Positions 18,286 to 38,354 of a stretch of DNA of 64,000 bases are shown here, piece by piece (position 1 is the first letter of the stretch; each line of letters opens with the position of its first letter). A program made the translations under genes and the position numbers. The DNA comes from a virus (lineage: Duplodnaviria > Caudoviricetes): positions 1-64,000 of the IMG/VR virus record IMGVR_UViG_3300011989_000257, one strand, 5' to 3'. The notes below the pieces were generated by a model. The model was not told where the DNA came from and did not search any database. It saw only the letters and a list, made by a program, of their open reading frames with translations.

Positions 18286-18639
18286 ATGAGTATTTTAGAA
18301 GAAATGACATATCTTTTTCTCAAAAAACAAAAGATAGAGTTTATAGCGCAAAAAAGATTTGATTTCATTGGACATAAAACACTTGATTTCTATTTGCCTC
18401 AATATAAAGTTGCAATAGAATGTCAAGGTGTACAACATTATCAGAAAAACAACAATTTTTTTAATTCTAAAGAACAGCAAAAAAGGGATAAAGATAAAAT
18501 AAAGGAGTGCCAAAAAAATGGTGTTAAAATAGTGTATTTTACTGAATATAAAAACAAAAAAATAGTACCTAAATTATATAAAAAGATAACATATTATAAT
18601 TTAAGAATAATGTTTAAAGATATATTAAATGAAATATAA
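18286..18639 (+). CDS. Stand-alone DUF559/Vsr-like PD-(D/E)xK endonuclease domain
   Basis: S.LEE...QKRF...LDFYLPQYKVAIECQGVQHY...D..K...C..NGVKIVY; start moved to MSILEE. Confidence 0.75.
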   Translation: MSILEEMTYLFLKKQKIEFIAQKRFDFIGHKTLDFYLPQYKVAIECQGVQHYQKNNNFFNSKEQQKRDKDKIKECQKNGVKIVYFTEYKNKKIVPKLYKKITYYNLRIMFKDILNEI

Positions 18640-19537
18640 CAAAAAGCTTAATGTTGCAAAAACATCCAAAATGGATGAATTTTTTACTGAATACCAAACA
18701 GTAGAAAAAGAGTTAGAAAACTATACTTCTTTTTTTGATGGAAAAACAATATATTGTAATTGTGATAATTATAAAACTAGTGCTTTTTTCAAGTACTTCC
18801 TTAATAATTTTGAGAGGTTTAAACTAAAAAAAATAATATGTACTTGGTATGATAAAAACAATGGCGGCAAATGTGAATATTATAACAACCAATATCATAT
18901 CACACAATTAGATTACGATGGTGATTTTAGAAATGAAAAAAACATTTCTATAATCAAAGAATCTGATATCATAGTAACAAACCCCCCATTTTCTCTTTTT
19001 AGGGATTTTATTAAATTAATGATGCAGTATAACAAAAATTTTATTGTTTTAGGAAATTTAAATGCTGTGAAATACAAAGACGTGTTTCCACATATTATGA
19101 ACAATCGAATTTTTATAGGAAAAAGCATTAGATATGGAGATACTGAATTCATAGTTCCAAATACATTTTTTGACCCTAAAAAAACCAAAAATTTTACCAT
19201 AGATAAAATAAGTGGTAATAAATTGGTTAAAGTGCCAAGTATTAGATGGTATACTAATTTAAAATATGATGGTTTTAATCAAACCACACTAAACTTAGTC
19301 AAAACAATTGATTCAATGGTGTATGAATTTTTTGATGGATATGACAATATTATAAATTGCGATAAAGTGTCAAATATACCTAAAGATTATAATGGAATAA
19401 TTGGTGTTCCAATTAGCTTTATTGACAAATATAACAGCAACCAATTTAAAATAATTGGTTTGATAAGAGTGCCTAAAATTAAAGGGACTGAAATATATTC
19501 TAGAATCCTTATACAGAAAAAAGAAGAAAGTGCATGA
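18629..19537 (+). CDS. Second EcoRI-family adenine-specific DNA methyltransferase
   Basis: DEFFT, IYCNCD, GDFR, IVTNPPFSLFR, GIIGVPISF..KYN..QF, RILIQ. Confidence 0.85.
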   Translation: MKYNKKLNVAKTSKMDEFFTEYQTVEKELENYTSFFDGKTIYCNCDNYKTSAFFKYFLNNFERFKLKKIICTWYDKNNGGKCEYYNNQYHITQLDYDGDFRNEKNISIIKESDIIVTNPPFSLFRDFIKLMMQYNKNFIVLGNLNAVKYKDVFPHIMNNRIFIGKSIRYGDTEFIVPNTFFDPKKTKNFTIDKISGNKLVKVPSIRWYTNLKYDGFNQTTLNLVKTIDSMVYEFFDGYDNIINCDKVSNIPKDYNGIIGVPISFIDKYNSNQFKIIGLIRVPKIKGTEIYSRILIQKKEESA

Positions 19538-19553
19538 CTTTTCTTCTTTTTTT
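19516..19553 (+). terminator. Intrinsic terminator
   Basis: Imperfect stem AAAGAAGAAAGT...ACTTTTCTTCTTT followed by a T-run. Confidence 0.6.
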
Positions 19554-19608
19554 ATTTTTAAACACTTGATTTTTACAATACATTTTATTATATTTTATAT
19601 ATACAAAT

Positions 19609-21579
19609 ATGGCATTATCATTAGCAAAGATACAGCAAGCAAATGAACTATTAAGGGATTATAAAGGCAATAATTCCTACATAATAAGGCTCAAAAACAC
19701 AGTAGTTGCCTATCAAACGAGAGCAATGAACGATTTTGAGTGCGAATACGTATTGTCTAATCACGATAAAGAACCAAAAGAAGTAAATAAGATTGTCAAG
19801 GTTGCTGATTGGTATGGTGAGAAACTAAAAGAAGAATATGAATTGGAATTCATACCAAAGGTGCTTAAGATTACTTGGTACATGGGAGAAACAAGCAAAC
19901 ACTACCATTTCTATTGCATATATAGAAAGTCACAAGATAAGGCAATTGAGTTATTTGCACCCAAAAATGGAATCCTGACTGACTTCTTGATTGAGGACTA
20001 TCACAGCCATGAATTTAATCCAACACCATATGAAGAAAAAAGTGGATACAAGCTTTTCGAACATCAAATAGATACAGTCAAGTTTCTATTGTCTAGAAAA
20101 AAAGGTATAGTTTCATTGGATATGGGGATGGGAAAAACTGTGTCAGCGATTGTGGCTGCATTGGAAGGTGATTACAAGCATGTATTGATAATTTCCCCCT
20201 CATCAGTGAAGAAAACGTGGGAGAATGAATTAAAACACTTCGTCGATGATAAGGACATAACCATTGTTCAAGGTTCAAAATGGGATGATGCAAAATTTAC
20301 AATCATTAACTTTGATATTTTAGATAACTTCTATGAGATACCAGAACAAGTGATTAAAACTAGTGAATTGAATGTAGATGATGATGGTAATGTTATAAGA
20401 GAATACAAAGACAAGAAAATCGTCTCTAGAAGCAAGAAAATCATCGATGAGGCAATGAGTAAGAGTCAATTGTTCCAGAGCCACTACGACCTTCTAATCA
20501 TCGATGAGGCACATAGATTGTCTAATAACACAAGTGGCAGATTCAAAATTATCTCTGACTTAATTAAGAGAAGTAATCCAAAGGGTATATTTGAGCTTAC
20601 AGGAACCATGATTACAAATACCTCAAAGAATCTGTATAATCTTCTTAAATTAATTGATTTGCCAATTACACGAGATTGGCAATATTTCATGGAAAGGTAT
20701 TGTGGGGCTAAGTTCTTTTACAAGAAGAATGAGAGGAACGCCTATACAGCATTGTTCCTAAAGGAGAAAAAGAAAAATACTTGGTGGGATTTGACGAATG
20801 ATGAAAAAGACGAACTTAATAATATATTGGAGAAGAAATGCAAGAAGCAATGTATCTTTGGTGAAGATACCAATATGGAAGAACTTCAAGAGATTATCAA
20901 GCCATATTATCTCAGGAGAATAAAGGAAGAACTTAATGATATGGTTAAAAAGACCATAAAGGTTATTCATTATGAGATGACTGATGATGAGCGTAAATCT
21001 TATGATGAATTATGGGACAAGTATCTTGAGTTGCAAGAAGACAAGGAAAAGACTGAAAAAAACAAGAAACTTATCGAGAGTTCACTTATGAGACAATGGC
21101 TTGCTGACAAGATGATTCCAAAGACCATAGACCTTGTAAGAAAATGTATTGAAGTTGGTAGGAAAGTTATAATATTCTGTGCTTTTGATAATGAGATAAA
21201 TAAATTCAAGGAAGAATTCGGTGATATATGCGTATATCATAATGGTAAGATAAACGAAAAGAAAAAAAATATTGCAGTTGAAAAATTCCAAAATGATGAA
21301 AATATAAAGGTATTTATTGGAAATATTCAATCTGCTGGTGTTGGACTAACATTAACTGCCGCTAGTGTTTGTGTATTCAATAATTTCAGTTTTGTGCCAG
21401 CTGATAACTTACAATGCCAAGATAGAATACATCGTCTTAACCAGACTAAACCTTGTACTATATATTATCAATCGTTTAATGGTACTTATTTCGACAAAAT
21501 GCTTGAAATTGTCAATAATAAACAAGATGTAATAGATAAAATAATAGTTACAGAAAAAGAAAAATATGGCAATAGATAA
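19609..21579 (+). CDS. SNF2-family helicase/translocase
   Basis: DMGMGKT (Walker A), DEAH, LTGT, SAGVGLTLT, QCQDRIHR. Confidence 0.9.
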   Translation: MALSLAKIQQANELLRDYKGNNSYIIRLKNTVVAYQTRAMNDFECEYVLSNHDKEPKEVNKIVKVADWYGEKLKEEYELEFIPKVLKITWYMGETSKHYHFYCIYRKSQDKAIELFAPKNGILTDFLIEDYHSHEFNPTPYEEKSGYKLFEHQIDTVKFLLSRKKGIVSLDMGMGKTVSAIVAALEGDYKHVLIISPSSVKKTWENELKHFVDDKDITIVQGSKWDDAKFTIINFDILDNFYEIPEQVIKTSELNVDDDGNVIREYKDKKIVSRSKKIIDEAMSKSQLFQSHYDLLIIDEAHRLSNNTSGRFKIISDLIKRSNPKGIFELTGTMITNTSKNLYNLLKLIDLPITRDWQYFMERYCGAKFFYKKNERNAYTALFLKEKKKNTWWDLTNDEKDELNNILEKKCKKQCIFGEDTNMEELQEIIKPYYLRRIKEELNDMVKKTIKVIHYEMTDDERKSYDELWDKYLELQEDKEKTEKNKKLIESSLMRQWLADKMIPKTIDLVRKCIEVGRKVIIFCAFDNEINKFKEEFGDICVYHNGKINEKKKNIAVEKFQNDENIKVFIGNIQSAGVGLTLTAASVCVFNNFSFVPADNLQCQDRIHRLNQTKPCTIYYQSFNGTYFDKMLEIVNNKQDVIDKIIVTEKEKYGNR

Positions 21580-21709
21580 AAACATTTATAATAACGGAAT
21601 CAAGGGTCTTTTAAGTTTATGGGAAATAGAATCATTACCTAGAGACTACGAGATGTACAAAGGCATGTTTCGTGATGCCACAAATAGGAGGGAATTGAAT
21701 GGAAGATGA
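21566..21709 (+). CDS. Small hypothetical protein (47 aa, MAIDKNIY...; below ORF-track cutoff)
   Basis: Fills the gap and overlaps both neighbours. Confidence 0.5.
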   Translation: MAIDKNIYNNGIKGLLSLWEIESLPRDYEMYKGMFRDATNRRELNGR

Positions 21710-22100
21710 AGAAAAAGTATATCTTTGCTTTATAAGATTAATTGGCGAAGAAAATGATGGGTATTATCGTTATGAATTTATCTTTACTGACAACATTGAT
21801 GAGGTATGGGGTGAAGGGTTTGAATATAAACCAGCATGCCTTATTAACAATCTAATGGTAAATGATGAATATATAACTGAAATCCACATCGTAAAAACTA
21901 AGATTAAATTGGAGTTGGCTCAAGACAATTGCTGTTTTGGCATGCAAGATTTTTATGACGGTATTTGTGCAATAGCATGGGAGGATATATCAAATTATGA
22001 TGAATATCCTGAAGACGGGAGAATTTTCTTCAAATTTGGAGAGACACTTGAAGAAGTTGAAAGAAAATTAGCAATAAAGAATGTTTTAATGGTAAATTAA
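21699..22100 (+). CDS. Hypothetical acidic protein
   Basis: ORF track. Confidence 0.75.
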   Translation: MEDEEKVYLCFIRLIGEENDGYYRYEFIFTDNIDEVWGEGFEYKPACLINNLMVNDEYITEIHIVKTKIKLELAQDNCCFGMQDFYDGICAIAWEDISNYDEYPEDGRIFFKFGETLEEVERKLAIKNVLMVN

Positions 22101-22102
22101 AT

Positions 22103-22369
22103 ATGGTTGAACCAAAATTTACAAAGGGTGATTATATAATCAATAGAAAAAATAGTTTCGAAAACAGTGATATTGCCATAGTAAAAGGAGTTACTAAAAA
22201 AGGATATTATCAATTTTCAGCCCTTTATGGCGGCATGTTCCATGAATTTAAGGATGTTAGTGATAAGAATTATGACTTACAGATAAACTATCAGAAGTTC
22301 TATGATTTATGCACTGACGAGGAAAAAGAAAAGTTTGATGCTTTACTAAAAGAAAAAGGAGGGAAATAG
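22103..22369 (+). CDS. Hypothetical protein
   Basis: ORF track; begins KFTKGDYI. Confidence 0.7.
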   Translation: MVEPKFTKGDYIINRKNSFENSDIAIVKGVTKKGYYQFSALYGGMFHEFKDVSDKNYDLQINYQKFYDLCTDEEKEKFDALLKEKGGK

Positions 22370-22385
22370 TTTCTCTCCTTTTTTT
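22353..22385. terminator. Bidirectional terminator
   Basis: AAAAGGAGGGAAA-tag-TTTCTCTCCTTTT between convergent genes. Confidence 0.7.
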
Positions 22386-22779
22386 ATTTTTTAATTGGCT
22401 GTATCACTATATAAAGCGGTTCTCTTATTGGCATTTTCAAAAGTCCAACAGGATATGTGTAATTATCATTTTTCAACGCACCATTAAAATTAATATCAAA
22501 TGTGCCAATATAGGTTCCAGCTTCTTTCGTGTCATGCGCTTTCCAATCATAGCATATGACATATTGTTCTGTACAATCATCGTTCTCACGTAATTTAATA
22601 TAAGCCTTACCCTTAGCAACCTTAGTCACATTAGTATCTGCATTTACCATTGTAAACGTAATATCGGCATTTTGTATGCATTCATGAAATTTACCGTAAT
22701 CATGCCTACCATCCTCGATTAACTCCATTCTAAGAGTGGGTAATACTGCCCCTTGATTAATATAATAGAATTGTGCCAT
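22384..22779 (-). CDS. BppU-N-like Ig-fold virion protein
   Basis: I.QG..LP.L...L...A.ITFTM...Y.W...DT..AGTY.G.F.I.F. Confidence 0.55.
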   Translation of the reverse strand: MAQFYYINQGAVLPTLRMELIEDGRHDYGKFHECIQNADITFTMVNADTNVTKVAKGKAYIKLRENDDCTEQYVICYDWKAHDTKEAGTYIGTFDINFNGALKNDNYTYPVGLLKMPIREPLYIVIQPIKK

Positions 22780-22848
22780 TTTTATACTTTTTGAATTTTC
22801 TATAAATATTACATTCTAAGAAATATTTATTGTAAAAATAAAGAATTA

Positions 22849-24183
22849 ATGTTAATACAACCAAAACCATATATGGATAAACTAAGACTCAGACATCATG
22901 CATATGGTACTGAGCGCAAAAGAAATATGTCCAAGTTAATACTTGAACATGGTACACCTATACCTAAACCTATCGAATATTCTGATATTGATGAAACTAT
23001 GTTTAAATGGGTTGATGAAAAGATTAGGATTACGTATGACGGTAAAAGACTCCCAACGTATAAATTATACAGCACACAAAGACTAAGTGAATATTTGCAG
23101 TCATGGGACAAACAAGATGATACTGGGAATCCAATCATAAATTTTAAAACTATCACACGTGAACTTAATCCTCAAAAGGGAGAAAATCAAGGAAGTTACT
23201 TCAATATTCCAGGGCATAAAAACTTTACAATGTTCTATGTTCCAGTGTTACAAGAAAACGGAACTGAGGCATTTGACAAATATACAATGAAACAACCAAC
23301 ACAAATTAATTTTTTGTATACTGTTTCAATCATTTCAAATAAAATGAATATAATAAACGAAATGAATGAACTTATGCATTATGAATTTAATGCGATTGAT
23401 TGTTACATATCTCCTAATGAACATCCAATGTCAATGACCTTGGAGGACATATCTGATGAATCTGAATATACGATAAATGACAGGAAATATTATTCTCAAT
23501 CTTATAAGATAAAAGTAAGAGGCTACATCATTCGTAAAGAAGATTATAGTGTTGAAAGGATACCTTCTAGATTGGTGATATCATCCCATGATTCTGATGC
23601 AAGTGGAATTGTTAACAAGAGAGGAAAAAATAGAAAAGAAGATGAGAAGGTTATATTTATGGAAGGTTTTAAAGAAAATCCAGAAGCATACGAAAGAATC
23701 AAAACAGAGGCACTATCAAAAGATGACCATTGCGAAGTTATTCCATTTGATGATAAAGAGAAGCCAAATCAAATATTCGAACCTTCAGATAACAATGATA
23801 TTTGCTGTGACCCAACTCCAAACAAATATTCTAATAAAATTATGAAGATAATGATGAACTTTGAGAGTTGCACAACAGAATTATCATTCATAATAGATAA
23901 GGAAATGGTACTACAGACAGTTGAGACAAACAATGTATATGATTTTAGACTACTTGTAAATGGTGAAGTTATGGATTTCGAAAGTGACGTAAGGTTTTAT
24001 CCTGAAGATGAAATAATGGTTAGGATTAGTAGAGACAATGTTGAAGAAAAGTCAGAATTATTTCTAATTGGATATGACCCTAACATTGCAATTGATAGGG
24101 AGAATATTGCTGAATCATCATTAGACGAACAAAGTGATGAGGAAGATATTATGATTAATTACGAGGAAGAAACAGAAAATTAA
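22849..24183 (+). CDS. Putative tail terminator/sheath stabiliser (T4 gp15-like)
   Basis: P..INF.Y.VSI.......NE......LEDISDE...DRK....Y.I.V.GY. Confidence 0.5.
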   Translation: MLIQPKPYMDKLRLRHHAYGTERKRNMSKLILEHGTPIPKPIEYSDIDETMFKWVDEKIRITYDGKRLPTYKLYSTQRLSEYLQSWDKQDDTGNPIINFKTITRELNPQKGENQGSYFNIPGHKNFTMFYVPVLQENGTEAFDKYTMKQPTQINFLYTVSIISNKMNIINEMNELMHYEFNAIDCYISPNEHPMSMTLEDISDESEYTINDRKYYSQSYKIKVRGYIIRKEDYSVERIPSRLVISSHDSDASGIVNKRGKNRKEDEKVIFMEGFKENPEAYERIKTEALSKDDHCEVIPFDDKEKPNQIFEPSDNNDICCDPTPNKYSNKIMKIMMNFESCTTELSFIIDKEMVLQTVETNNVYDFRLLVNGEVMDFESDVRFYPEDEIMVRISRDNVEEKSELFLIGYDPNIAIDRENIAESSLDEQSDEEDIMINYEEETEN

Positions 24184-24185
24184 AT

Positions 24186-25655
24186 ATGGTTTTTAAAAGT
24201 TATATAACAAAATTCACTACTATAATTTCAAATAGTAAATTAAACACAGGACTTAACCCAATATCTGAATTGGTATATGGAAAAAATAATATTGTTTCTA
24301 GAGCATTATTTTACTTTGACCATAATAAAGTAAAGGAACTAATTGAAGATGGAACAATGATAGACATAAAGAATATGAAACACACGCTTCATATCATTAA
24401 TGCTGGGTCAACTGACCTAACACAATTGCATACATGTGAGACTAGTTCCATAAACGATAATATGAGACTTCGTGCAACATCATTCGACATTATATTCTTT
24501 TTAATACCAAAACCTTGGGATAGTGGAAAAGGATTTGATTATACGATGAATGCATTGAACTATGGATATTATTCTCCAACACCAACAGACCCAAAAAGAC
24601 TTTATTCTACTGATGGGTGCAATTGGTTTCAGAGAATGAATGGCTTACCTTGGGAAGAAGAAGGCATATATACTAATGAAACTTTATCAAAAGAATATGA
24701 TAAGTTCTCATGTGGGGAAGAATCAATTGTAGTAGGTAGGCAACATTTTGATGTTGGTAATGAAAGTATTGACTTGGATATTACCACAGTATTCAATAAG
24801 TTCCTAAATGGTGAATTAGAAAATTATGGACTTGGTATGGCATTCTCACCATTATTGGAAAGCATGGATAGTGACTATGAGAATTATGTTGGCTGGTTTA
24901 CCAATAAAACCAATACCTTCTTCGAACCTTATGTTGAAACAAGATATTCTGACGTGGTTTCAGATGATAGGTCTAATTTTGTACTAAACAAAGATAATAG
25001 ACTATACCTTTATTGTACAATTGGAGATACATTACAAGACCTTGATAACAATCCAACGGTGACTATCAAAAATAACGATGAAGAAGAAATCACAACTCTT
25101 GAATCACAAAAACAGTTTAGGGGTATATACTATGTTGATTTAAATCTCTCTAAAAGCGATTTTGAGGCTAATACAATGCTTTATGATACATGGGGTAATA
25201 TATCTTACCAAGGAACAAAATTGGACGATGTAGAGCTTGATTTTACACTTAAAGACACCACTAACTTCTTTAACATTGGAAATTCTCTATCAACTACGAA
25301 TGTTACTTTCACTCCAAGTATTTCTGGAATCAAAGAATGTGAAGAGATTAAACGTGGCGATGTTAGGAAACTAATTATTTCAGCGAAACCTAACTATACT
25401 GTAAACACCACACAATTGGTTGATAACATAGATATTAGGTTATATGTAAAGGATGGTACTAGAGAAATAGATGTAATAGAATGGGATAACATTAATAAAG
25501 CATTTTCTGAGAACTTCTACATGCTTGATACAAACATATTGATACCTCAGAAATATTTCGTTGACATTAGGATTAAGTATGGCATGAATTCGATAATACA
25601 TCACGATGTATTGTCATTTAATATTGTTGATGATTTGAATAACAAGTATGCATAA
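24186..25655 (+). CDS. Hypothetical virion protein
   Basis: ORF track; beta-rich; follows the gp15-like gene. Confidence 0.7.
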   Translation: MVFKSYITKFTTIISNSKLNTGLNPISELVYGKNNIVSRALFYFDHNKVKELIEDGTMIDIKNMKHTLHIINAGSTDLTQLHTCETSSINDNMRLRATSFDIIFFLIPKPWDSGKGFDYTMNALNYGYYSPTPTDPKRLYSTDGCNWFQRMNGLPWEEEGIYTNETLSKEYDKFSCGEESIVVGRQHFDVGNESIDLDITTVFNKFLNGELENYGLGMAFSPLLESMDSDYENYVGWFTNKTNTFFEPYVETRYSDVVSDDRSNFVLNKDNRLYLYCTIGDTLQDLDNNPTVTIKNNDEEEITTLESQKQFRGIYYVDLNLSKSDFEANTMLYDTWGNISYQGTKLDDVELDFTLKDTTNFFNIGNSLSTTNVTFTPSISGIKECEEIKRGDVRKLIISAKPNYTVNTTQLVDNIDIRLYVKDGTREIDVIEWDNINKAFSENFYMLDTNILIPQKYFVDIRIKYGMNSIIHHDVLSFNIVDDLNNKYA

Positions 25656-25657
25656 AT

Positions 25658-25689
25658 AAAGGTGGGGAAATTAATCCTCACCTTTTTTT
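25658..25689. terminator. Bidirectional terminator
   Basis: AAAGGTGGGGA...TCCTCACCTTTTTTT. Confidence 0.7.
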
Positions 25690-26063: not shown

Positions 26064-26084
26064 TTTTCTTTCTAAAATACAGTT

Positions 26085-26390: not shown

Positions 26391-26398
26391 ATTACCTC

Positions 26399-26671: not shown

Positions 26672-26696
26672 ATTGATTATATTTTTTAATTTCTGT

Positions 26697-26730
26697 TGCA
26701 AATGTACGAAAAAAAATCGAGACTACCAAA
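26697..26730 (-). promoter_or_regulatory. Bacteroidota sigmaA-type promoter overlapping a terminator hairpin
   Basis: TTTGG-N19-TACATTTGCA; hairpin AAAATCGAGA..TCTCGATTTT at 26709-26746. Confidence 0.75.
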
Positions 26731-26760
26731 AGTAATCTCGATTTTTAACTTTTATTATAC

Positions 26761-26907: not shown

Positions 26908-26912
26908 GTGGA

Positions 26913-28599: not shown

Positions 28600-29400
28600 A
28601 TGGGAAAAAAGAAAAATTTGAAAGATTTGTCTGACTTAGAGTTGGATTTTATCGAAGAAAAGATGAAAGGAGACAGTGCTCTCAATTATCTTACATCAGA
28701 AGGCTTATGCACTAAGTTAAAAACGTTAAGTTACAAACTAAATGTAAAATGTAAAAACCAAAAGCAAAAAACTTTTTTAAAACACTTACAAGATTTAAAT
28801 GTTAAATTAAACATATGTGATGCGCCAGCTGGTGTTGGAAAATCTCTTTTAGCTTTAACTGCTGGTTTATCTTTACTAAAAAATGGTGATATATCAAAAA
28901 TACTTGTCATTGTACCAACAGTTGAAGCTTCAGAAGCAACCAAAATTGGTTTATTACCTGGAAGCATAGAAGAAAAAATTAAGCCATTCCAAATGGCTAC
29001 AATATCAACATTAGAAAAAATATTAAAACTAAGTGGGAACATAGGCTATATAGAAATAGCACAGCAATTAGTTAATAGTGGATTAATTGAATTTGAATTA
29101 CTTAGTTATGCTAGAGGTAAAACATTTGATGACTCATTCATTATAATTGATGAAGCGGAAAACTTGTCAAAAAGGGAAACACTTCTTCTGATTGGCAGAA
29201 TGGGTGATGGAAACACTAAAATAGCACTTTTAGGTGATAAAGAACAATGTGACCGTAAAGGAATAAGGGATTTTAATGATAGTGGTTTAATACATGCAAA
29301 AAATAAATTATTTGATGTTGAAGGGGTTTCAATCGATGAATTCTCAAATGATGACATTGTTAGAAATACATTTATAACAAAAATTTTTGAAAAATGGTAA
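28600..29400 (+). CDS. phoH: PhoH-family ATPase
   Basis: APAGVGKS, IGLLPG...EK..PF, RGKTF, IIDEAEN, GD..Q.D, DIVR. Confidence 0.9.
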   Translation: MGKKKNLKDLSDLELDFIEEKMKGDSALNYLTSEGLCTKLKTLSYKLNVKCKNQKQKTFLKHLQDLNVKLNICDAPAGVGKSLLALTAGLSLLKNGDISKILVIVPTVEASEATKIGLLPGSIEEKIKPFQMATISTLEKILKLSGNIGYIEIAQQLVNSGLIEFELLSYARGKTFDDSFIIIDEAENLSKRETLLLIGRMGDGNTKIALLGDKEQCDRKGIRDFNDSGLIHAKNKLFDVEGVSIDEFSNDDIVRNTFITKIFEKW

Positions 29401-29421: not shown

Positions 29422-29429
29422 TATTTATA
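29422..29429 (+). promoter_or_regulatory. Putative late promoter TATTTATA
   Basis: Between two + genes, 23 nt before the ATG. Confidence 0.55.
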
Positions 29430-29452: not shown

Positions 29453-30403
29453 ATGAGTAGAAAAATTACAATTGAAGAATTCATTGAACGAGCAAGAAAA
29501 GTTCATAACGACAAATATGAATATCCAAATGTCGTTTACAAAGGAATGCATGAAAAAGTATGCATAATATGCCCTAAACATGGCGAGTTCTGGCAAACAC
29601 CAGCCAATCATTTAAGTGGGAAGGGATGTCCAGAATGTGGAAACATTTCTAGATGGGATACAAAGGGAAGAGTAACTACTGAAGAATTCATTTGTAGAGC
29701 TAAAGAGATTCACGGTGATAAGTATGATTATTCTAAAGTAAACTACATTAACGCCCACACGAAAATTTGCATAATATGCCCTAAGCATGGTGAGTTCTGG
29801 CAAACGCCAAATAATCACCTAACAAAATATGGATGTAAAAAGTGCGCAATGGACGCTTTAACCTCTAACAAACCTAGAAGCATTGAGGAATTTGTAAAAA
29901 TGTCGAGGGAACTACATGGTGACAAATATGATTATTCCAAAGTGGAATATAAAAATTGTAAAACCAAAGTGTGTATAATATGTCCTATTCACGGAGAGTT
30001 TTGGCAAACTCCAGATAATCATTTACAAGGCAACAGTTGCCCATTTTGTTCAGAAAGCAAATTAGAAAGGGAAATACGTATGTTTCTTACTGAGCATAAT
30101 ATTAAATATGAATATAATAAATCTAAACATTGGCTAAAAAAACAAAGATTAGATTTCTATCTTCCAGATTATAATGTTGCAATAGAATGTCAAGGACAAC
30201 AACATTTTGAGCCTGTTGATTTCGGTGGTGAAGGGTATGAAAAAGCAGTTAAACAATTTTTATATGTTAAAAAATTAGATTTATTGAAAAAAGAAAGATG
30301 TTTTAAAAATGGCGTTAAAATAATCTATTATAGTGATAGAAAAAACGAAAATAATATAATAACGAATAAACAAGAGATTTTAGATTTAATTAAAAAAGGG
30401 TAG
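29453..30403 (+). CDS. Putative homing endonuclease: 3 zinc-finger repeats (DUF723-like) plus DUF559/Vsr-like nuclease
   Basis: 3x HGDKYDYS.V.Y....K.CIICP.HGEFWQ.P..HL....C..C; LDFYLPDYNVAIECQGQQHF. Confidence 0.8.
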   Translation: MSRKITIEEFIERARKVHNDKYEYPNVVYKGMHEKVCIICPKHGEFWQTPANHLSGKGCPECGNISRWDTKGRVTTEEFICRAKEIHGDKYDYSKVNYINAHTKICIICPKHGEFWQTPNNHLTKYGCKKCAMDALTSNKPRSIEEFVKMSRELHGDKYDYSKVEYKNCKTKVCIICPIHGEFWQTPDNHLQGNSCPFCSESKLEREIRMFLTEHNIKYEYNKSKHWLKKQRLDFYLPDYNVAIECQGQQHFEPVDFGGEGYEKAVKQFLYVKKLDLLKKERCFKNGVKIIYYSDRKNENNIITNKQEILDLIKKG

Positions 30404-30430
30404 AGCTTTTCTACCCTTTTGATATTTATA
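30392..30430 (+). terminator. Terminator immediately followed by late motif TATTTATA (30423-30430)
   Basis: AAAAGGGTAGAG-ct-TTTCTACCCTTTT, then GATATTTATA. Confidence 0.75.
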
Positions 30431-30437
30431 TAAAAAT

Positions 30438-31604
30438 ATGTTTTATATGGAAATTGACAAAACATTTAAGCCAAATGAAGAGTGGATGGCAAAGAAATAT
30501 AATGAAATGAACCAACAATTATTCGGTGGGTCGTTGGGAGATTGCGATTTTGCAATATTCACAAGTGGTAAAGGCTCACAAGGTGGTGTTCTTGGGTGGT
30601 TCAAGATTACTGGAAGTAATGTACGAGCAGATAGATATAGTAGAAGGATGTTTGTTGGAGGTTGGGGAACAAAAGTATTCATAGACAGAAACAATTTTGT
30701 GCGTCTTTGTAGACCTAGAATTGAACTAAATGGTAACTATACTGGTACTGAACAATCTTTCCTTGCAACATTGGCGCATGAAATGTGTCATTATTATACA
30801 TATATGGATGGCTATTGTCCAAAACAAGGACATGGTAGAGAATTTAAAGAAATAGGACAAATTGTATCACAACGTTCAAATGGTATGTTTACCATACAAA
30901 GATTAGCTAGTGCTGAACAAATGTCTCAAATGGAACTTAGCGATGAGATGAAGGCTAAACGTGAAAAAAGACTTTCAAATAGAAAATCATCAGTTACAGC
31001 TGTAATTGTATTCACACCAGAAGGCAAGATTAAACTATCAATAACATCTAATGAAAGGTTGGTTAACTTAATTAAAACAACAAGCGAAGGATACGGAGAA
31101 AAGGTAATAGTCACAAATAATGCAGATGTTATAGATTACCTTTTTGCAAAAGGATACAAAAAAAATATGAGGACTTGGAGATATTGGAGTCTTGAAGGTA
31201 AGCCTTGGATTGATGAACTAAAACAAATGCTGCCAGAAACTAGTGGAGAAACCCTTGGAGTAAAGAGGCCAACTGTTCAACCGCAGCCAAAACAGTCTAA
31301 AAGAGTCTTCTCAATTAAGACAAGTAATGGGATATTCGAATATGATGGAAGCTCATATTATGCGTTACTTAATGCATTAAAGGAAAGGTTTCCACGTACA
31401 AGTGAAGATGCAATTTTGAAACTAATAAATAACCCAAACAATTATAGAATGGTAGAAAGTAGAATGAATACAAAATCAATAATTAAAGAAGTAATTGACG
31501 AATTTATGAAAAATGAATTCAGAGGTGCAAATAATATGAATGATACTGTTGAGATAACACCAGACATGAATTTAGGATTAGAATCTCCATTAGAAATGGA
31601 TTAA
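30438..31604 (+). CDS. SprT-like zinc metalloprotease
   Basis: YNEMNQQLFGG.L, TLAHEMCHYY (HExxH), GHGREFK. Confidence 0.8.
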   Translation: MFYMEIDKTFKPNEEWMAKKYNEMNQQLFGGSLGDCDFAIFTSGKGSQGGVLGWFKITGSNVRADRYSRRMFVGGWGTKVFIDRNNFVRLCRPRIELNGNYTGTEQSFLATLAHEMCHYYTYMDGYCPKQGHGREFKEIGQIVSQRSNGMFTIQRLASAEQMSQMELSDEMKAKREKRLSNRKSSVTAVIVFTPEGKIKLSITSNERLVNLIKTTSEGYGEKVIVTNNADVIDYLFAKGYKKNMRTWRYWSLEGKPWIDELKQMLPETSGETLGVKRPTVQPQPKQSKRVFSIKTSNGIFEYDGSSYYALLNALKERFPRTSEDAILKLINNPNNYRMVESRMNTKSIIKEVIDEFMKNEFRGANNMNDTVEITPDMNLGLESPLEMD

Positions 31605-31607
31605 AAT

Positions 31608-31640
31608 AAAAAGCGAGACTCAATGGAATCTCGCTTTTTT
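31608..31640. terminator. Bidirectional terminator
   Basis: AAAAAGCGAGA...TCTCGCTTTTTT. Confidence 0.85.
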
Positions 31641-31645
31641 GTATG

Positions 31646-32560
31646 TTAAGAAATCCTTACATATTCAGATAATATTGAATCAATGTCATAACCCTCAAGT
31701 TGATTAATATAACCTGGCCAGTCACCACATTGCTCCATACCAGCCCAAGGATGTACGTGATGCATAATAGCGCCTTTCATAATTTTAAGAAGCTCTACTA
31801 ATTTATCTCCCATCGGAACTTGATGAAGTCTATCCATAACTAAATCAGAATCTTCGTCTCTTACCAAGAAATCCTTATCATGTATATTATCTGATACATT
31901 ATTATCTCTATTACTTATTAGATTAATATTATCAGCAACCATATTAATCATGCTAGAAACTTGATGATTTTGGTTCTTTGCAAGGTTAGATTTATACTTT
32001 AACTGTATATATGCTGGGTCTATATCATTGAACATTATATTCCCAATTAAACCTCTCTCTCTTGATATGGATGGTTCTGTACGTATACCAGCACGTATAT
32101 CAACCTCACTCTTTTTGGTAGCCTCATCATACTTCAAAGTCACGTCTTCTGAGCCTCTGCCAATAACCGATATATCTTCATTGTTAGGAAATGCCCCTCT
32201 AGACATATCGAAATTGGATATCTTCTCTATAGGGTTAAACTCAAAGTTCTTGAACGTAGATGTAGAATCTTCTTTTTTATCATAGGTCATATACTGTGGT
32301 TGCGCAATAACTGGGCCTATATAGTATCTCTGAGATTGATTATTATCAGTTTCCTCAGTTATAATCAACACAGCTTCGCCAACTTTAGGTAACACATGAA
32401 AAACTTTTGGCATCAGTGGAAAAGCCCAAGGAATATCTTCGAGCTTCTTTGGTTTATCTTCAGTGAGTTCGGCTCTAACTCTCATTCCATCAGAACCACC
32501 TTTCGAATATACATTCTCAACTTCTCTCACCTTACCAACCTTAACAACTAATTCACTCAT
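31646..32560 (-). CDS. Baseplate central spike (gp5/gpV OB-fold)
   Basis: G.V..V...RVR...WAFPL...LPKVGEAV....RYYIG; C-terminal HVH metal-binding motif. Confidence 0.7.
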   Translation of the reverse strand: MSELVVKVGKVREVENVYSKGGSDGMRVRAELTEDKPKKLEDIPWAFPLMPKVFHVLPKVGEAVLIITEETDNNQSQRYYIGPVIAQPQYMTYDKKEDSTSTFKNFEFNPIEKISNFDMSRGAFPNNEDISVIGRGSEDVTLKYDEATKKSEVDIRAGIRTEPSISRERGLIGNIMFNDIDPAYIQLKYKSNLAKNQNHQVSSMINMVADNINLISNRDNNVSDNIHDKDFLVRDEDSDLVMDRLHQVPMGDKLVELLKIMKGAIMHHVHPWAGMEQCGDWPGYINQLEGYDIDSILSEYVRIS

Positions 32561-32747
32561 CCTTTAAAATACCTCTCTTTTGTAATTCATCATTAGCCTC
32601 ATTATATAAGGCATCAAGTTCTTGCAATTCATGAACCAATGAGATAATCTTATCTTTTTTAACATTGTATTCATTCTCGTAACCCATAATCTTAATATTG
32701 ATTTCTGCATTACTTAATTTACTAAAATCTACTTTCTTTTTCCCCAT
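32553..32747 (-). CDS. Small coiled-coil protein
   Basis: ORF track; start at MGKKK. Confidence 0.65.
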   Translation of the reverse strand: MGKKKVDFSKLSNAEINIKIMGYENEYNVKKDKIISLVHELQELDALYNEANDELQKRGILKDE

Positions 32748-32749
32748 AA

Positions 32750-33106
32750 TTAAAATGCGCATCCAAAACCCATTCCTGGAGTACCATTACCATATGGTGT
32801 GGATTGCATGGTTCCAGGAGTTATTCCAACTTGTATTGACATATCATTTTTAATCCCTCTATATGTTTCCTTAGTCGAGGCAAACATAACGCCAACAGTT
32901 AGATTAGCACTACCATCTGGCATTGGTCCAGTTGGTATACCAAGCCTATTTAAATCCTTAACGATATTAGCCACAGATTGAATGGTAGACAAACCAGGCC
33001 TACGTATCATCGAACATACCAACAATATCCTATTTATCTGTGGAAATGGCGGTCTCATGTTATTAAAGAAATTAGTAATTGTTTGACAAATTTGTTCTAT
33101 TCCCAT
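32750..33106 (-). CDS. Hypothetical protein (baseplate region)
   Basis: ORF track; start at MGIEQ. Confidence 0.65.
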   Translation of the reverse strand: MGIEQICQTITNFFNNMRPPFPQINRILLVCSMIRRPGLSTIQSVANIVKDLNRLGIPTGPMPDGSANLTVGVMFASTKETYRGIKNDMSIQVGITPGTMQSTPYGNGTPGMGFGCAF

Positions 33107-33108
33107 AT

Positions 33109-35253
33109 TCAACATTTTTTATTCGGCTTATCGCCACTTATTGTACTACTAACATCAATATCAGCATAGTCAACAGTGTCTAACTTTGTTTCAAGGTCTT
33201 GATTTCCAAAACTAAACCAAATCGATGGACAATTCCTAATTATATCGTTAATTGCTGCTGTGTAGTTTTCAATCTGCTCCCTTAATAGTATTGATTCCAT
33301 CATCTCCTTTAAAGGCTCTAGGAACTTTAAAACAAGTTTTAAAAGTTCTTGTATAACCAAGTCACGAACTTCCTTTACAATCGATATTATGATGCTCTGC
33401 ATAGATTTCATCAAGTCTTCAGCAGTAAATGCTTTCCAGCTGCCACCCATTATCTGTCTGTTAACTTCTAAAAGCATCATTACCTTTGGAGACAGTACTG
33501 CATTCATTATGGCTAATACAAGATTCTCAATTAAATCAAAAACGAAACCAAATTCTACACCGTATTTATCGCTTTCATCAACACCTTCTGATATTGTCAC
33601 TGATGCTTGCGTTATAGCACGACTTATAACATCAACTTGTTCTTCTAGAGTTGCGGCATCGTCATATTCTTCTAATATTTGCCTAACATTATCAAATGAT
33701 GCTGACTTATTAGTAGTGTTACCAAAATTATATTGCCTTGCTCTCCTCTCTTCACTAAGTCTTAACAAATGTTCATACTTAGAATTATCGAATGAAAAAT
33801 AACAATCTTCAACTGAAGAATCATCAGAATTAATAATATTCTTGACAATCTCTTTTATTCTATCTGTTGCTTCTTGATGTTTTTTACCTAACGCAAGATT
33901 AATACCTAGTCTAGTATTAACCAAAGTATCTAAAAGTGTTGTTGCCATGACTTTTGCATCAAACAATTTCATGCCCATCACATAGTCATAATTGAATTCA
34001 TAGACTGTCAAGCCTTTATAACACTCAACAAGATTCTTAACAACTTCACTCTTATCAACTACAGTCACATTACCACTTTTAGGGTCTATTTTAACGTTTC
34101 CGTCCAAATATTCTAGTAATGTACTATCTTCTACGTCTTGTATTGTGTATTTACCGTTTGGGTCATAATTACCTTTACTATCGAATAATAGTCTTTTAAA
34201 TCTCCAAGGTGGTTCTCCTTCGCTTAAGTTTGGTATATGTATTACTGGTTTCCTTAAAATCGTAAATTTGATGATATTATTAACCAACCCATTTGAAGGA
34301 TACAAGTTACTAGAGGCTGTGTCTATATATTGTAAATTACATATACCTCTTTCCTTAGAAAAATCCCTACCTTCAAAATTTTTCTTACCAAAGCCAAGAT
34401 TCTTCGTTAGTTGGTCTGCACGCCTAATATACCAATTAACACTACAAATGTCATCAGACACTGGAACCAACGTATTACTCACAATCGTATTTCCGCTATC
34501 ATATTTCCTATCGATACACATAGATATTGGAGAATGTTGATTGTTATACTTAAACGTGTTGCCCAACAATATATTTGACGCTGTTTTACTAGTATTAACA
34601 GTTGCTGTCAACACATCCAATAGAGTACCATCACTAGGTGTAACTGTCATTTCGCCTAATCCATGTATACTATCAGAAAAACTATCAAAATTATCAAGTT
34701 CTGATGCATTAGGAAACTTACCTTTATGCATAACGAACCATATAAAGGCATCAAAGTCCTCTGCTCTTGCAAACTTGTATACGTCATTAATACCCTCAAG
34801 ACCAAAGTACATGTCCTTACCAAAGATACTAAGTGGATTTTCTGAAAGTTTATCCAAGAAATCAATCGACTCTACACTGATATCAATTCCATATCCTTCG
34901 ACCATAGCACTTTCGCATTTTAGCCTTTTTCTATACTTTTCTGGAATTCTAGGGTCAACTGAACAAGATACCATATTTTTAAGATTAGTCAACAAGATGG
35001 CTTTAACTGCTATTTCTAATACTGGAAGTATATATATCAGAAAATTAGCAAGATAATCCCTAAGTTCTTCATAAGTAACGCCTAAATGCTTTAACAACTG
35101 CAAAATGAATCCTATTGGATTTGTTGCAAATGTTAAAGATAACTTAGGAGATTCAAGCATGATGCCCATTATCACCAAAACCTTATCAACCATTGCTTTG
35201 GCAGTATCTATACTTGCCATTGCTTCTTGTTGCTTATCCTTAATGTTACTCAT
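33109..35253 (-). CDS. Large hypothetical virion protein
   Basis: 714-aa ORF in the same operon as the spike; helical termini. Confidence 0.75.
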   Translation of the reverse strand: MSNIKDKQQEAMASIDTAKAMVDKVLVIMGIMLESPKLSLTFATNPIGFILQLLKHLGVTYEELRDYLANFLIYILPVLEIAVKAILLTNLKNMVSCSVDPRIPEKYRKRLKCESAMVEGYGIDISVESIDFLDKLSENPLSIFGKDMYFGLEGINDVYKFARAEDFDAFIWFVMHKGKFPNASELDNFDSFSDSIHGLGEMTVTPSDGTLLDVLTATVNTSKTASNILLGNTFKYNNQHSPISMCIDRKYDSGNTIVSNTLVPVSDDICSVNWYIRRADQLTKNLGFGKKNFEGRDFSKERGICNLQYIDTASSNLYPSNGLVNNIIKFTILRKPVIHIPNLSEGEPPWRFKRLLFDSKGNYDPNGKYTIQDVEDSTLLEYLDGNVKIDPKSGNVTVVDKSEVVKNLVECYKGLTVYEFNYDYVMGMKLFDAKVMATTLLDTLVNTRLGINLALGKKHQEATDRIKEIVKNIINSDDSSVEDCYFSFDNSKYEHLLRLSEERRARQYNFGNTTNKSASFDNVRQILEEYDDAATLEEQVDVISRAITQASVTISEGVDESDKYGVEFGFVFDLIENLVLAIMNAVLSPKVMMLLEVNRQIMGGSWKAFTAEDLMKSMQSIIISIVKEVRDLVIQELLKLVLKFLEPLKEMMESILLREQIENYTAAINDIIRNCPSIWFSFGNQDLETKLDTVDYADIDVSSTISGDKPNKKC

Positions 35254-35654
35254 TATTTCTTGTTAAGCTGTATTGTTTTAGTCTTTTCTTTATCTTCGTA
35301 TGACTCATCAATCATCTTTTTGATATCATCAAAATTGAAATCCATACCTTTACTCTGTGTTCCATTTTCAAGAGCTTCTTTGACATCACCATTGTGATTA
35401 TGGATGTCAGTAAGTATCTTTGCAATATCTATTTTTTTAGATATAGCCTTATCTTTTACACCTAGATAATCATTTATTATTTTACCATATTTAGCCTTTC
35501 CATCAATTGATTCTTCTTGCAATTGAGTTGCGTTAGCCATCTTATTGATTTCGTTTTGCGCTTGGATTATCTGTTCATCCGCTAAATTATAGGCATTTTG
35601 AAGCAAATCCCTAATATTCTGGATGTCATTTATTTCTATTTTAAGTTTACCCAT
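35253..35654 (-). CDS. Hypothetical helical protein
   Basis: ORF track; sense-strand TATTTATA at 35659-35666. Confidence 0.7.
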   Translation of the reverse strand: MGKLKIEINDIQNIRDLLQNAYNLADEQIIQAQNEINKMANATQLQEESIDGKAKYGKIINDYLGVKDKAISKKIDIAKILTDIHNHNGDVKEALENGTQSKGMDFNFDDIKKMIDESYEDKEKTKTIQLNKK

Positions 35655-35678
35655 ATCCTATAAATATTACAACTCGAA

Positions 35679-36467
35679 TTATTCATTAATAAGTTCCCAC
35701 TTTACTTCATAATATTTTTTCTTATATATTTTCAAAGCATCCCTTATTTCCTTTGTATTCAATAATGTGGACTCTTTTAAAAAGAGTAGAATGGAACTCT
35801 TATTGAATTTATTACTTCCCATTTCCGCAAAAATATCATCCCAATTCGTCATTAGATTGATTAAAGTAGTCCCAACCTTAATTTCATTTTCAGTAAGCTT
35901 AAACCTTTCCTTGTCATTTAGAATCAACTTTATATTTTTAACAGTGCTACCAGTAAGTTCAGAAAGAAATGTTTTTCTAGGGTCTAAATCATCATAAGAA
36001 AATTTTAAACTATCATTAACATTCAAAGTCTCTTCTGAAGGACTATCGTATGACGAATTTCTCTTCTGAGTCTTTATAAACTGATTAATCTTATATATAA
36101 GATAATTCTTACATATTGTACCACAATAAGAATAAGCTTTATAGCCGCTATTAGGGTCGAAACATGATAGCTTGGTCATAAGGAACGACATTGTATCTTT
36201 AAATGTCTCATCAAATTCTTCATCTGGTGGATAAAGATTATACCTTCTTATGATTGATTCTATCATTTTCGTAAAGGCTGGTTTAAGTACCTCATTGAAA
36301 ATCTTATTCTTTTCTTTTTCATTGTCACATGAAATATAATCGGCAACAGCCTTTTCTTGTTCAGCACAAAAATAATAATTCTTTTTGTTTGGATTTGGCT
36401 TTCTACCTCTCTTTTTCTTTTGAGGCTCTTGAACAATAATTGTTTCCTCTGTCTTAACTTCTTCCAT
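35679..36467 (-). CDS. Phage sigma factor for late transcription (T4 gp55-like)
   Basis: NYYF, F.KM...I...Y, FDPNSGYKAYSYCGTICKN resembles sigma region 2 of gp55; N-terminal KKRGRKP. Confidence 0.7.
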   Translation of the reverse strand: MEEVKTEETIIVQEPQKKKRGRKPNPNKKNYYFCAEQEKAVADYISCDNEKEKNKIFNEVLKPAFTKMIESIIRRYNLYPPDEEFDETFKDTMSFLMTKLSCFDPNSGYKAYSYCGTICKNYLIYKINQFIKTQKRNSSYDSPSEETLNVNDSLKFSYDDLDPRKTFLSELTGSTVKNIKLILNDKERFKLTENEIKVGTTLINLMTNWDDIFAEMGSNKFNKSSILLFLKESTLLNTKEIRDALKIYKKKYYEVKWELINE

Positions 36468-36618
36468 TGATTAGATATTTATATTTGGGGGATATCCCTC
36501 AATTAGTTTATATTTTAATACTAAATATCACATCAAAGGCAAATCTGTGCAAAAACAGCACACTTTCTTTCACATTTCCAATCGGAAATCTCCGTGTGCC
36601 ATAATGATGTTGTTAAAA

Positions 36619-36649
36619 AATGGCATTAACCATCATAATTAATGCCATT
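36619..36649 (-). terminator. Intrinsic terminator
   Basis: AATGGCATTAA...TTAATGCCATT with an A-run on the left. Confidence 0.7.
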
Positions 36650-36659
36650 ATATGTTTTT

Positions 36660-37088
36660 TTATCTTGCAATTGTGTATGTTATCCAATCTTTATCTTTAT
36701 CTATCTGAGACACCCTATCAAATAATATGATAGGCCATTCGCCACGCCCAAAATAGTTTCTTTCTACATTAAACATACCATTTTCAAATGCTTTATCACA
36801 TTCCTCAAACGTATCTCTAAAACGTTCAAGAGTATCACCATTTTTTAGTATGGGTTTAACTTCTATTCCATAATGTTTTAACATTATATCATACATAACC
36901 AACCCACCCTTAAAAAACGGATAAAGACTCTTAATAAAATCCAATTTTATTGATAAATCTTTATATATCATCTCTAAGACAACTTCATTTGAGGTGTTTT
37001 TATCCACAGAAAATATAGATATTCTTTTACCTAAAATCTCTCTATCATATTTATTCATTTTCTTCTGCATTTTTCTTGTATTCCTCAT
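36660..37088 (-). CDS. Hypothetical protein
   Basis: ORF track. Confidence 0.65.
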   Translation of the reverse strand: MRNTRKMQKKMNKYDREILGKRISIFSVDKNTSNEVVLEMIYKDLSIKLDFIKSLYPFFKGGLVMYDIMLKHYGIEVKPILKNGDTLERFRDTFEECDKAFENGMFNVERNYFGRGEWPIILFDRVSQIDKDKDWITYTIAR

Positions 37089-37220
37089 AAGTTTTATTTC
37101 TATGGTATATGTGCCACATTATTCCCATAATATAATGTAAACGTTTTAGTGAGAAAATGAAGTGAAAACCAATGGTTTTTCATCCAATCACACCCAATAT
37201 ACCACCAACTATTTGGGGCA

Positions 37221-38354
37221 TTATAGCATCTTAATTTTATCATATTTTTTTATCTCTTCTAAAAGTTTATCAGTGTTTTTAATTAATTGTTCACCTAAAA
37301 ATAAATCATAATCTTCGTGAGTATAATACAATATTTTAACGTTATGTTCTTTACAAAGTTCTTTTTTATTTTTATCTAATTCTTTTTGGCGTTTTAATTT
37401 CTTATTACCTCCCCAATTTTTCACAATGTCAAAATGCTGTATTCCTTGACATTCAACAGCAACATTATATTCTGGTAAATAAAAATCTAAACTTTGTAAA
37501 CCTAGCCAGTTAAATCTTTTTTGCCTTTCTACAATAAAAGACATTTTGTCAAAAAAACTATTTATTTCTTCTTCAAGCAAACTTTCTTTGCACATTGGAC
37601 AACCATTCCCATCTATATGACTAAATGGCCTCTGCCAGAATTCTCCGTGTTTTGGGCATATTATACACACTTTAGTTGTCGAATCCACATATTTAACTTT
37701 AGAATAATCGTATTTGTTGTTATGAACGATTTTGGATTGTTCAAGAAAATTATTGATTTTATTTTCTTTAATACAGTTAGGACAATTACCACCTTTCAAA
37801 TGAACAGTAGGAGTTTGCCAAAACTCACCGTGTTCTGGACAAATAATACAAACTTCTTTTTTACTGTGAATATATTCCACTTTTGAGTAGTCATATTTAT
37901 CTCCGTGAACTTCTTTGGCTCTATTTACAAATGTAGTCGTATCATATACTTTCTCATTGCATTTTTTACACCCAAAGCCATTTAAGTGTGAATAAGGAAC
38001 TTGCCAAAACTCACCGTGAACTGGGCATATTATACACACTTTTGTTCGGTTATTAATATAATCAACTTTTGAGTAATCATACTTATCACCGTGAACCTCC
38101 CTAGCCCTCCTTATAAATTCATCTTTTCCGTCTCTAAAAACATCACCCCTAGTTATATTGGCACACTTTGGACAATCTTGCCCTTTAAGGTGATTATGCG
38201 GTGTTTGCCAGAATTCACCATGTTTAGGGCATATTATGCATACTTTTTCATGCATTTTTTTATATTCTACTCTTGAGTAGTCATACTTGTCACCGTGAAC
38301 CTCCTTAGCTCTATCAACAAACTCTTTATTAGTAATTTTCCTTAACATAGACAT
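37221..38354 (-). CDS. Putative homing endonuclease: 4 zinc-finger repeats plus DUF559/Vsr-like nuclease
   Basis: 4x CIICP.HGEFWQ.P..H repeat; LDFYLPEYNVAVECQGIQHF; sense TATTTATA at 38364-38371. Confidence 0.8.
   Translation of the reverse strand: MSMLRKITNKEFVDRAKEVHGDKYDYSRVEYKKMHEKVCIICPKHGEFWQTPHNHLKGQDCPKCANITRGDVFRDGKDEFIRRAREVHGDKYDYSKVDYINNRTKVCIICPVHGEFWQVPYSHLNGFGCKKCNEKVYDTTTFVNRAKEVHGDKYDYSKVEYIHSKKEVCIICPEHGEFWQTPTVHLKGGNCPNCIKENKINNFLEQSKIVHNNKYDYSKVKYVDSTTKVCIICPKHGEFWQRPFSHIDGNGCPMCKESLLEEEINSFFDKMSFIVERQKRFNWLGLQSLDFYLPEYNVAVECQGIQHFDIVKNWGGNKKLKRQKELDKNKKELCKEHNVKILYYTHEDYDLFLGEQLIKNTDKLLEEIKKYDKIKML

Follow-up and report, generated by a model that had tools for sequence, protein, structure and literature searches.

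What are the genes in which a large phage ties one and the same nuclease domain to a zinc-module array of varying length, and does the array choose the DNA that the nuclease cuts? The question is raised by IMG/VR record IMGVR_UViG_3300011989_000257, a 412,514-bp virus record (Duplodnaviria; Caudoviricetes; G+C ~32%), the first 64 kb of which form the stretch of DNA analysed here (the window). Window genes mostly lack family names. Three of them, called A, B and C below, share the nuclease core LDFYLP.Y.VA.ECQG.QH in their translations; a zinc-module repeat is absent from A and occurs three times in B and four times in C. An earlier note, made from the sequence alone, had described nucleases with arrays of these lengths and proposed modular DNA recognition coupled to a Vsr-like cutter; the open reading frames (ORFs) and translations agree with its count. 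As far as sequence can tell, the note had the kind of gene right, and modular DNA reading is a reasonable though unproven part of it. The array genes are very probably free-standing homing endonucleases, in which an array of CapR/DUF4379/DUF723-like modules with four cysteines (Cys4) is followed by a C-terminal EDxHD/Vsr-like nuclease. Their parts, with lengths in amino acids (aa), are:

18286..18639, plus strand: gene A, Vsr-like nuclease without zinc modules, 117 aa; the ORF is open from 18235
29453..30403, plus strand: gene B, whole ORF, 316 aa, three repeats
29453..30061, plus strand: gene B array of three Cys4 zinc modules (aa 1-66, 70-135 and 138-203), from Pfam, repeat alignment and AlphaFold2 model
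30062..30403, plus strand: gene B C-terminal EDxHD/Vsr-like nuclease domain (aa 204-316) and stop codon, from Foldseek and invariant residues
37221..38354, minus strand: gene C, whole ORF, 377 aa, four repeats
37578..38354, minus strand: gene C array of four Cys4 zinc modules (aa 1-259)
37221..37577, minus strand: gene C C-terminal EDxHD/Vsr-like nuclease domain (aa 260-377) and stop codon

The start of gene A at 18286 is preferred, as it agrees with the homologue in locus L044. Scanned for these motifs in all six frames, the whole genome contains exactly four nuclease cores, along with eleven repeat cores: gene A (core at 18385) has no repeat, B has three, C four, and the remaining four belong to a further gene, D, outside the window:

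G000:C1:235767-236915, minus strand: gene D, 382 aa, four zinc modules and the same nuclease, preceded by ATATTTATA

The nature of the cutter is indicated by predicted structure and by conserved residues. The AlphaFold2 model of the gene B protein, built from an alignment of 15 relatives (mean predicted local distance difference test score, pLDDT, 85), consists of three helix/beta-hairpin/helix copies followed by an alpha/beta domain, and significant Foldseek matches to solved structures are confined to this last domain. They are E. coli Vsr (1vsr and 1cw0, E ~5e-4), the catalytic domain of the homing endonuclease I-Bth0305I (3r3p, Foldseek probability 1.0) and the Vsr-like domains of PvuRts1I and AbaSI, so that a Vsr-like cutter is what the fold of the model suggests as well. 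Six residues of gene B (E205, D234, E245, Q247, H251 and D276) are invariant in the 15 relatives, and gene A keeps the same six. An E, D, H, D active-site set, the counterpart of E25, D51, H69 and D97 in Vsr, defines the EDxHD family (PMC3239194). Proteins A, B and C match PHROGs 559, 681, 4605 and 9084; PHROG 4605 has no assigned function, and the annotation of the named families is endonuclease, HNH endonuclease or homing endonuclease. An NCBIfam scan returned no names. None of the three proteins has a Pfam match to T5orf172 or GIY-YIG, and in place of an N-terminal NUMOD/helix-turn-helix region there is the zinc-module array.

The eleven repeats of the genome are 61-69 aa long and can be aligned without gaps over an invariant scaffold (KYDYSKV.Y, CIICP.HGEFW, H and C..C), with identities of 54-73% in protein and 58-76% in DNA. 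Pfam matches gene B to DUF4379 (E 7.5e-9), DUF723 (9.9e-7) and CapR (3.8e-6), and gene C to DUF4379 (E 1.8e-10) and DUF723 (1.2e-6); judged from these identities and from the DUF4379 matches, the likeness of the repeats is not due to chance. Pfam describes DUF4379 as a 'probable treble clef zinc finger'. The metal site is read most simply as CxxC...CxxC, with four invariant Cys accompanied by two or three invariant His. The repeat that had been described as a C-x2-H...C-x2-C unit of ~60 aa thus exists, with a somewhat greater length and with four invariant Cys, the 'C-x2-H' being the second Cys of the first knuckle together with one of the invariant His. A unit of this length and Cys content stands apart from the C2H2 family, whose beta-beta-alpha unit has 28-30 aa and Cys2His2 ligands, and to which genes A, B and C have no Pfam match. 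In the model of gene B each repeat forms a helix, a beta-hairpin and a second helix (pLDDT 83-92), and a single-repeat model built from 100 repeats reaches a pLDDT of 87. Compared with solved structures, the single-repeat model has no convincing relative: the best Foldseek match has an E of 0.87, and the best Z in an exhaustive VIA-align search is 3.4, which is under the meaningful level. When the Protein Data Bank was searched by sequence, gene B, a repeat profile and a nuclease profile gave chance-level matches only. The modelled repeat fold may or may not be new.

Against this constant scaffold, the eleven repeats vary at the five residues that follow a Tyr, around the Pro that follows W-Q, at two positions that come after H-L and within the final C..C. 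The first two of these windows are those named in the earlier note, whose strings (TPAN/TPNN/TPDN/TPHN/VPYS/TPTV/RPFS and KGMHE/INAHT/KNCKT/KKMHE/INNRT/IHSKK/VDSTT) are identical to the translation; the two positions between 'HL' and the last CxxC are a third variable spot. Per-position entropy, which the note had put forward as a check, was computed over 442 distinct canonical repeats from 122 proteins, in the numbering of a 56-residue core. Hypervariable positions are found: entropy peaks at 3.0-3.55 bits at core positions 26, 27, 45, 46, 49 and 51, with positions 24 and 43 next. The residues at these hot positions are mostly N, S, K, H, R, Q and T.

In the reading that we propose, the array would bind an extended DNA site, to which each module would contribute contacts through polar residues in three short variable patches on the invariant scaffold. 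DNA binding by the array is inferred by analogy with its homologue CapR, which binds a specific DNA probe and loses binding when its four Cys are changed (PMC8096241). The variation could also arise if the patches were loosely constrained surface loops, with target choice lying in the nuclease domain or the invariant scaffold and the array lending unspecific affinity or spacing. In favour of loose loops, ordinary positions on the surface of the first helix are also fairly variable, at 2.2-2.8 bits, and in I-Bth0305I, which reads ~14 bp about the point of cutting, specificity resides mostly at the cleavage site (PMC3239194). Relaxed constraint, however, predicts that the hot positions should change most readily among orthologues, and the opposite is seen. 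Among six gene B orthologues (78-99% identical; few, closely related and non-independent sequences, which counts against our reading), hot columns vary in 4 of 28 cases and ordinary variable columns in 20 of 37 (Fisher p = 0.0016). Each repeat also keeps its own signature down to 78% overall identity, and the hot positions are almost wholly occupied by polar, hydrogen-bonding residues; these comparisons fit hot positions held by selection in each repeat, as target-reading residues would be. On balance we consider loose loops a rather unlikely explanation.

Other points weigh against the proposed reading of the array genes in the same way, some of them being points in favour of loose loops. The three alleles at the insertion site of gene C yield a trend only, with hot columns varying in 8 of 20 cases and ordinary ones in 18 of 26 (p = 0.07), and in repeat 1 of the L034 allele some hot residues differ from those of gene C at the same site, either because targets drift or because strict determinants lie elsewhere than in these residues. 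Since no solved structure is related to the repeat unit, there is no DNA-bound template for it. The fit of E205, D234, H251 and D276 of gene B to the E, D, H, D set of the EDxHD family is a match of order, not a residue superposition, and the Pfam family DUF559 is significant for gene A (E 1.1e-4) and not for B or C. It is quite doubtful that the patches at 24-28, 43/45/46 and 49/51 of the core allow each module to read a short DNA stretch of fixed length. If it did, the array would be a decodable, natural and re-programmable one comparable to transcription activator-like effector (TALE) repeats, with tens of thousands of natural pairs of array and target site from which a code could be worked out. 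To our knowledge there is no per-module code for the Cys4 unit.

Homing is suggested by the distribution of the array genes in related phages. The neighbours of gene B are a PhoH-like gene on one side and a SprT-like gene on the other, and comparison of this site (site B) in 24 related loci shows it in several states. It is empty in L008, L009, L010, L011, L014, L015 and L021, in which the gap is ~25-100 nt. L016 has an array nuclease only 50% identical to gene B, though its PhoH is 78% identical. In L019 the site holds a 46-codon stump of the first repeat, and in L018 the same stump is interrupted by a TnpB gene. Gene B orthologues range in identity from 99% down to 78%. Gene C follows the gene at 38399-39190. 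At this second site (site C) 9 of 12 relatives are empty, with the homologue of 38399-39190, a conserved hairpin and leader, and then the homologue of 35679-36467; in L034, L040 and L043 the site is occupied by array nucleases with three repeats. Gene C adjoins a further ORF:

36660..37088, minus strand: 142-aa ORF without family, from tblastn of the related loci

The ORF has no phage match and no tblastn match in any of the 12 related loci L032-L043; it therefore probably came with or after the gene C cassette. Comparison of insertion sites in related phages, another of the checks put forward earlier, thus reveals empty, occupied, replaced and decayed states, the patchwork to be expected from the life cycle of free-standing homing endonuclease genes, as read from the sequences of these loci. 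An intron-encoded origin was rejected: Rfam and tRNA scans of the window are empty, so the genes are free-standing.

Two side observations concern site B. The 382-aa TnpB (OrfB_IS605 with a Cas12f1-like TNB domain) that lies in the decayed endonuclease stump of L018 is encoded at L018:2840-3985 on the minus strand. The PhoH-like gene (window 28600-29400, compared with L008-L021) falls into two classes, of 45-47% or 78-91% identity, while the gene downstream of the site is uniformly 64-72% identical in the relatives. As far as these identities can tell, the difference points to a recombination boundary at the endonuclease site, of the kind that PMC10448857 reports for other phages.

The mechanism we propose starts from a cut that the nuclease would make near the site bound by its array, in a co-infecting relative without the gene. 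Repair from the gene-bearing genome would then copy the cassette, together with its flanks, into the empty site. The cassette would comprise a promoter-like motif, the ORF and a hairpin terminator, and candidates for these signals flank the array genes:

29422..29429, plus strand: TATTTATA within TTGATATTTATAAT, promoter-like, 23 nt before the gene B ATG
30398..30420, plus strand: terminator-like hairpin GGGTAGA/TCTACCC followed by TTTT, closing the gene B cassette (read from the sequence)
38364..38371, minus strand (sense strand): TATTTATA, 9 nt before the gene C ATG

A hairpin similar to the one that, with its run of T, follows gene B is found after the L016 allele.

Genes of this type may also be kept because they are useful. 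They could be domesticated and not actively homing, serving as nucleases against competitors, satellites or the host or as CapR-like regulators. Domesticated relatives exist in the CapR repressor and in Odn of ICP1, which acts against a satellite (PMC8096241; PMC10448857). The array-less gene A, with its catalytic-type residues intact, has a methyltransferase gene as its neighbour in two phages, the two genes having diverged to a similar degree, and the persistence of gene B orthologues from 99% to 78% identity would likewise be expected of a useful gene. The patchy empty, occupied, replaced and decayed sites of both array genes, however, are typical of selfish homing genes, and a pure regulator has no need of invariant nuclease residues. 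Exclusion of competitors and homing are, moreover, compatible. We therefore regard domestication as unlikely for the array genes, and homing as the better account of them.

How arrays come to differ in length is indicated by the alleles at site C. The L040 allele, with three repeats against the four of gene C, is shorter by exactly one unit, whose ends fall at the HGEF core. The allele is also a mosaic: its identity to gene C is 80-93% in repeats 1-2, 58-73% in repeat 3 and 37-60% in the nuclease. The one-unit, mosaic difference implies that repeat number changes by recombination within the scaffold and that the history of an array may differ from that of its nuclease. In the proposed mechanism, recombination inside the conserved repeat core would alter both the number of repeats and the combination of domains. 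Recent shuffling or gene conversion within the present genome was considered and rejected, since no pair of repeats is more than 76% identical in nucleotides and synonymous sites are saturated. More than one codon is used for 17 of the 18 invariant residues, the exception being Trp, which has a single codon. By this sequence measure the repeats within the genome are old. Of the earlier proposal that specificity evolves by repeat shuffling, the shuffling itself is seen in the one-unit mosaic difference at site C and not, as a recent process, within the present genome.

Gene A raises a question of its own. It overlaps the start of an EcoRI-like N6-adenine methyltransferase gene by 11 nt, and the pair recurs in L044, with both proteins 65% identical. 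A as half of a restriction-modification-like pair, its nuclease cutting unmethylated DNA, rather than as a remnant of a homing gene, would account for the overlap and for the conservation of the pair, and Vsr-like folds are used by the restriction enzymes PvuRts1I and AbaSI. The closest relatives of gene A are, however, the nuclease domains of array genes (44% identity to C), the more distant L045 and L046 keep the methyltransferase without the nuclease, and no DNA-recognition domain is visible in the 117 residues of A. Such a pair seems improbable to us. Gene A is a nuclease-only relative of the array genes kept beside a methyltransferase gene; it may be an array-less remnant of a homing gene, a domesticated nuclease or half of a restriction-modification-like pair. 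The dcm-type C5-cytosine methyltransferase that partners Vsr is not among the neighbours of A, B or C: gene A stands beside EcoRI-like N6-adenine methyltransferases, and B and C beside unrelated genes. Two paralogous EcoRI-like N6-adenine methyltransferase genes, at 16125-17006 and 18629-19537, flank 17034-18056 and gene A.

The signal upstream of the array genes belongs to the phage at large. TATTTATA occurs on the sense strand before B, C and D; its presence before both array genes of the window had been pointed out in the earlier note, which likened it to a T4 late promoter. Its letters, however, are those of the T4 late promoter in reverse complement. The reading as a late promoter of T4 type that only the array genes have was rejected, as the motif precedes, within 80 nt on the sense strand, 42 of the 521 ORFs of at least 60 codons in the whole genome (its complement precedes 12), mostly 15-23 nt from the start codon. 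One copy lies just beyond the gene B hairpin and precedes the SprT-like gene:

30423-30430: TATTTATA belonging to the SprT-like neighbour

The 8-mer is not significantly over-represented in the window (17 found, 11.3 expected), so the evidence for a function comes from position and strand, not from frequency. By this evidence it is a general upstream signal of the present phage, carried by the cassettes. Two further motifs stand upstream of many genes. ATATTTAT(A) stands before 62 ORFs, in most cases with 15-23 nt between it and the start codon; it may represent a class of promoters specific to the phage. TATCTTTGCA precedes 57 ORFs (for example at window 18121-18131, in minus-strand sense). 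Promoters of Bacteroidota have a -7 element, TAnnTTTG, which we take TATCTTTGCA to match; the match suggests a Bacteroidota host and promoters for the host polymerase.

Genes B, C and D are a clear example of a published and very large family. A word-indexed search gave at least 8000 family candidates, all at E <= 1e-5, and strict repeat cores number from 0 to 6 among the best 120 of these at least 8000 matches together with the three proteins of the window. An exhaustive search of 1.84 billion representatives (clustered at 50% identity) found 40,029 proteins with an E of 0.001 or less, 13,802 of which reach 1e-30 or less; lengths exceed 1000 aa in some. Among GenBank phages, 1119 records have a match, labelled endonuclease, HNH endonuclease, homing endonuclease or hypothetical; a DNA search with loci B and C gave no match there. 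Predicted viral structures place the same modules in giant viruses too, and in proteins with other partner domains. Three proteins on other contigs (P0033, P0097 and P0119) have five zinc modules, an acidic low-complexity tail and a different C-terminal region; they do not match the Vsr-like nuclease motif, and the array is thus combined with other partner domains.

The architecture was described for phage homing endonucleases with three to five ~60-aa domains, distantly CapR/DUF4379/DUF723-like, followed by an EDxHD/Vsr-like domain of ~100 aa, and these were recognised as a large, previously overlooked outgroup of EDxHD/Vsr homing endonucleases with thousands of members (PMC12350094, 2025). 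The same zinc-finger domains occur in tandem, as 'beads on a string', in T5orf172 endonucleases, where the modules were proposed to give specificity and in-frame deletion through recombination between repeats was shown (PMC10448857, 2023); the binding study of CapR is older still (PMC8096241, 2021). Neither the architecture nor the idea of recombining repeats is therefore novel (PMC12350094; PMC10448857). The literature holds, as far as we found, no structure, cleavage site or recognition code for Vsr-type members. The present genome adds matched empty and occupied sites, a mosaic allele that differs by one repeat, old repeats and the conservation of hot positions. On its own it is a well-documented example that leaves existing knowledge unchanged. 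Matched sites for two genes and alleles that differ by one module are nevertheless material for finding targets and for asking about a code, and a gene type this common in phages and giant viruses would, judged from sequence, be a large pool of modular nucleases with long sites.

Known systems resemble the present one in part. The proteins of PMC12350094 have the same combination of three to five ~60-aa domains and a ~100-aa Vsr-like domain, and are likewise phage-borne and biochemically uncharacterised; theirs, however, lie in group I and II introns, whereas those here are free-standing intergenic cassettes, and the present genome also has a nuclease-only paralogue. The T5orf172 endonucleases of ICP1 and other phages (PMC10448857) and CapR (PMC8096241) use the same zinc module in tandem, and modular recognition was proposed for the former, with a one-unit in-frame difference like that between the natural alleles here. 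Their cutter is of the GIY-YIG superfamily and not Vsr-like, and CapR itself has no nuclease. I-Bth0305I (3R3P; PMC3239194) has a Vsr-like catalytic domain with invariant E, D, H and D in the same order, but binds DNA through NUMOD/helix-turn-helix elements and resides in a group I intron, in contrast to the free-standing zinc-module proteins here, to which its sequence similarity is below detection. The Seg and Mob genes of T4 are likewise intergenic cassettes of patchy distribution, which bring their own transcription signals and are believed to spread together with markers on their flanks; unlike the present genes they encode GIY-YIG and HNH nucleases with other DNA-binding domains, and the motif upstream of the present genes differs from the late promoter of T4. 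Engineered zinc-finger and TALE nucleases also tie tandem DNA-binding modules to a nuclease domain, with a C2H2 finger of 28-30 aa or a TALE repeat of 34 aa in place of the 61-69-aa Cys4 unit.

Near site C, an intergenic element at window 36468-36660 (minus strand) lies upstream of the gene at 35679-36467 and is also present in L032, L035, L036, L038, L041 and L042. It consists of a terminator hairpin with compensatory changes, followed by a core of ~70 nt (GGCACACGRAGATTT...GAAATGTGAAAGAAAGTGTG...CAGATTTGCCTTTGAT) whose small hairpins have compensatory changes too. The DNA of the core is 84-88% identical among these loci, against 68-78% for the flanking proteins, and the element has no Rfam match; it may be a leader or a small RNA. 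The 262-aa protein encoded downstream of it (35679-36467, minus strand) is found in all relatives and has a weak match to sigma-70 region 2 (E 0.006, which falls short of the Pfam cut-off), so that a sigma-like factor of the phage is conceivable.

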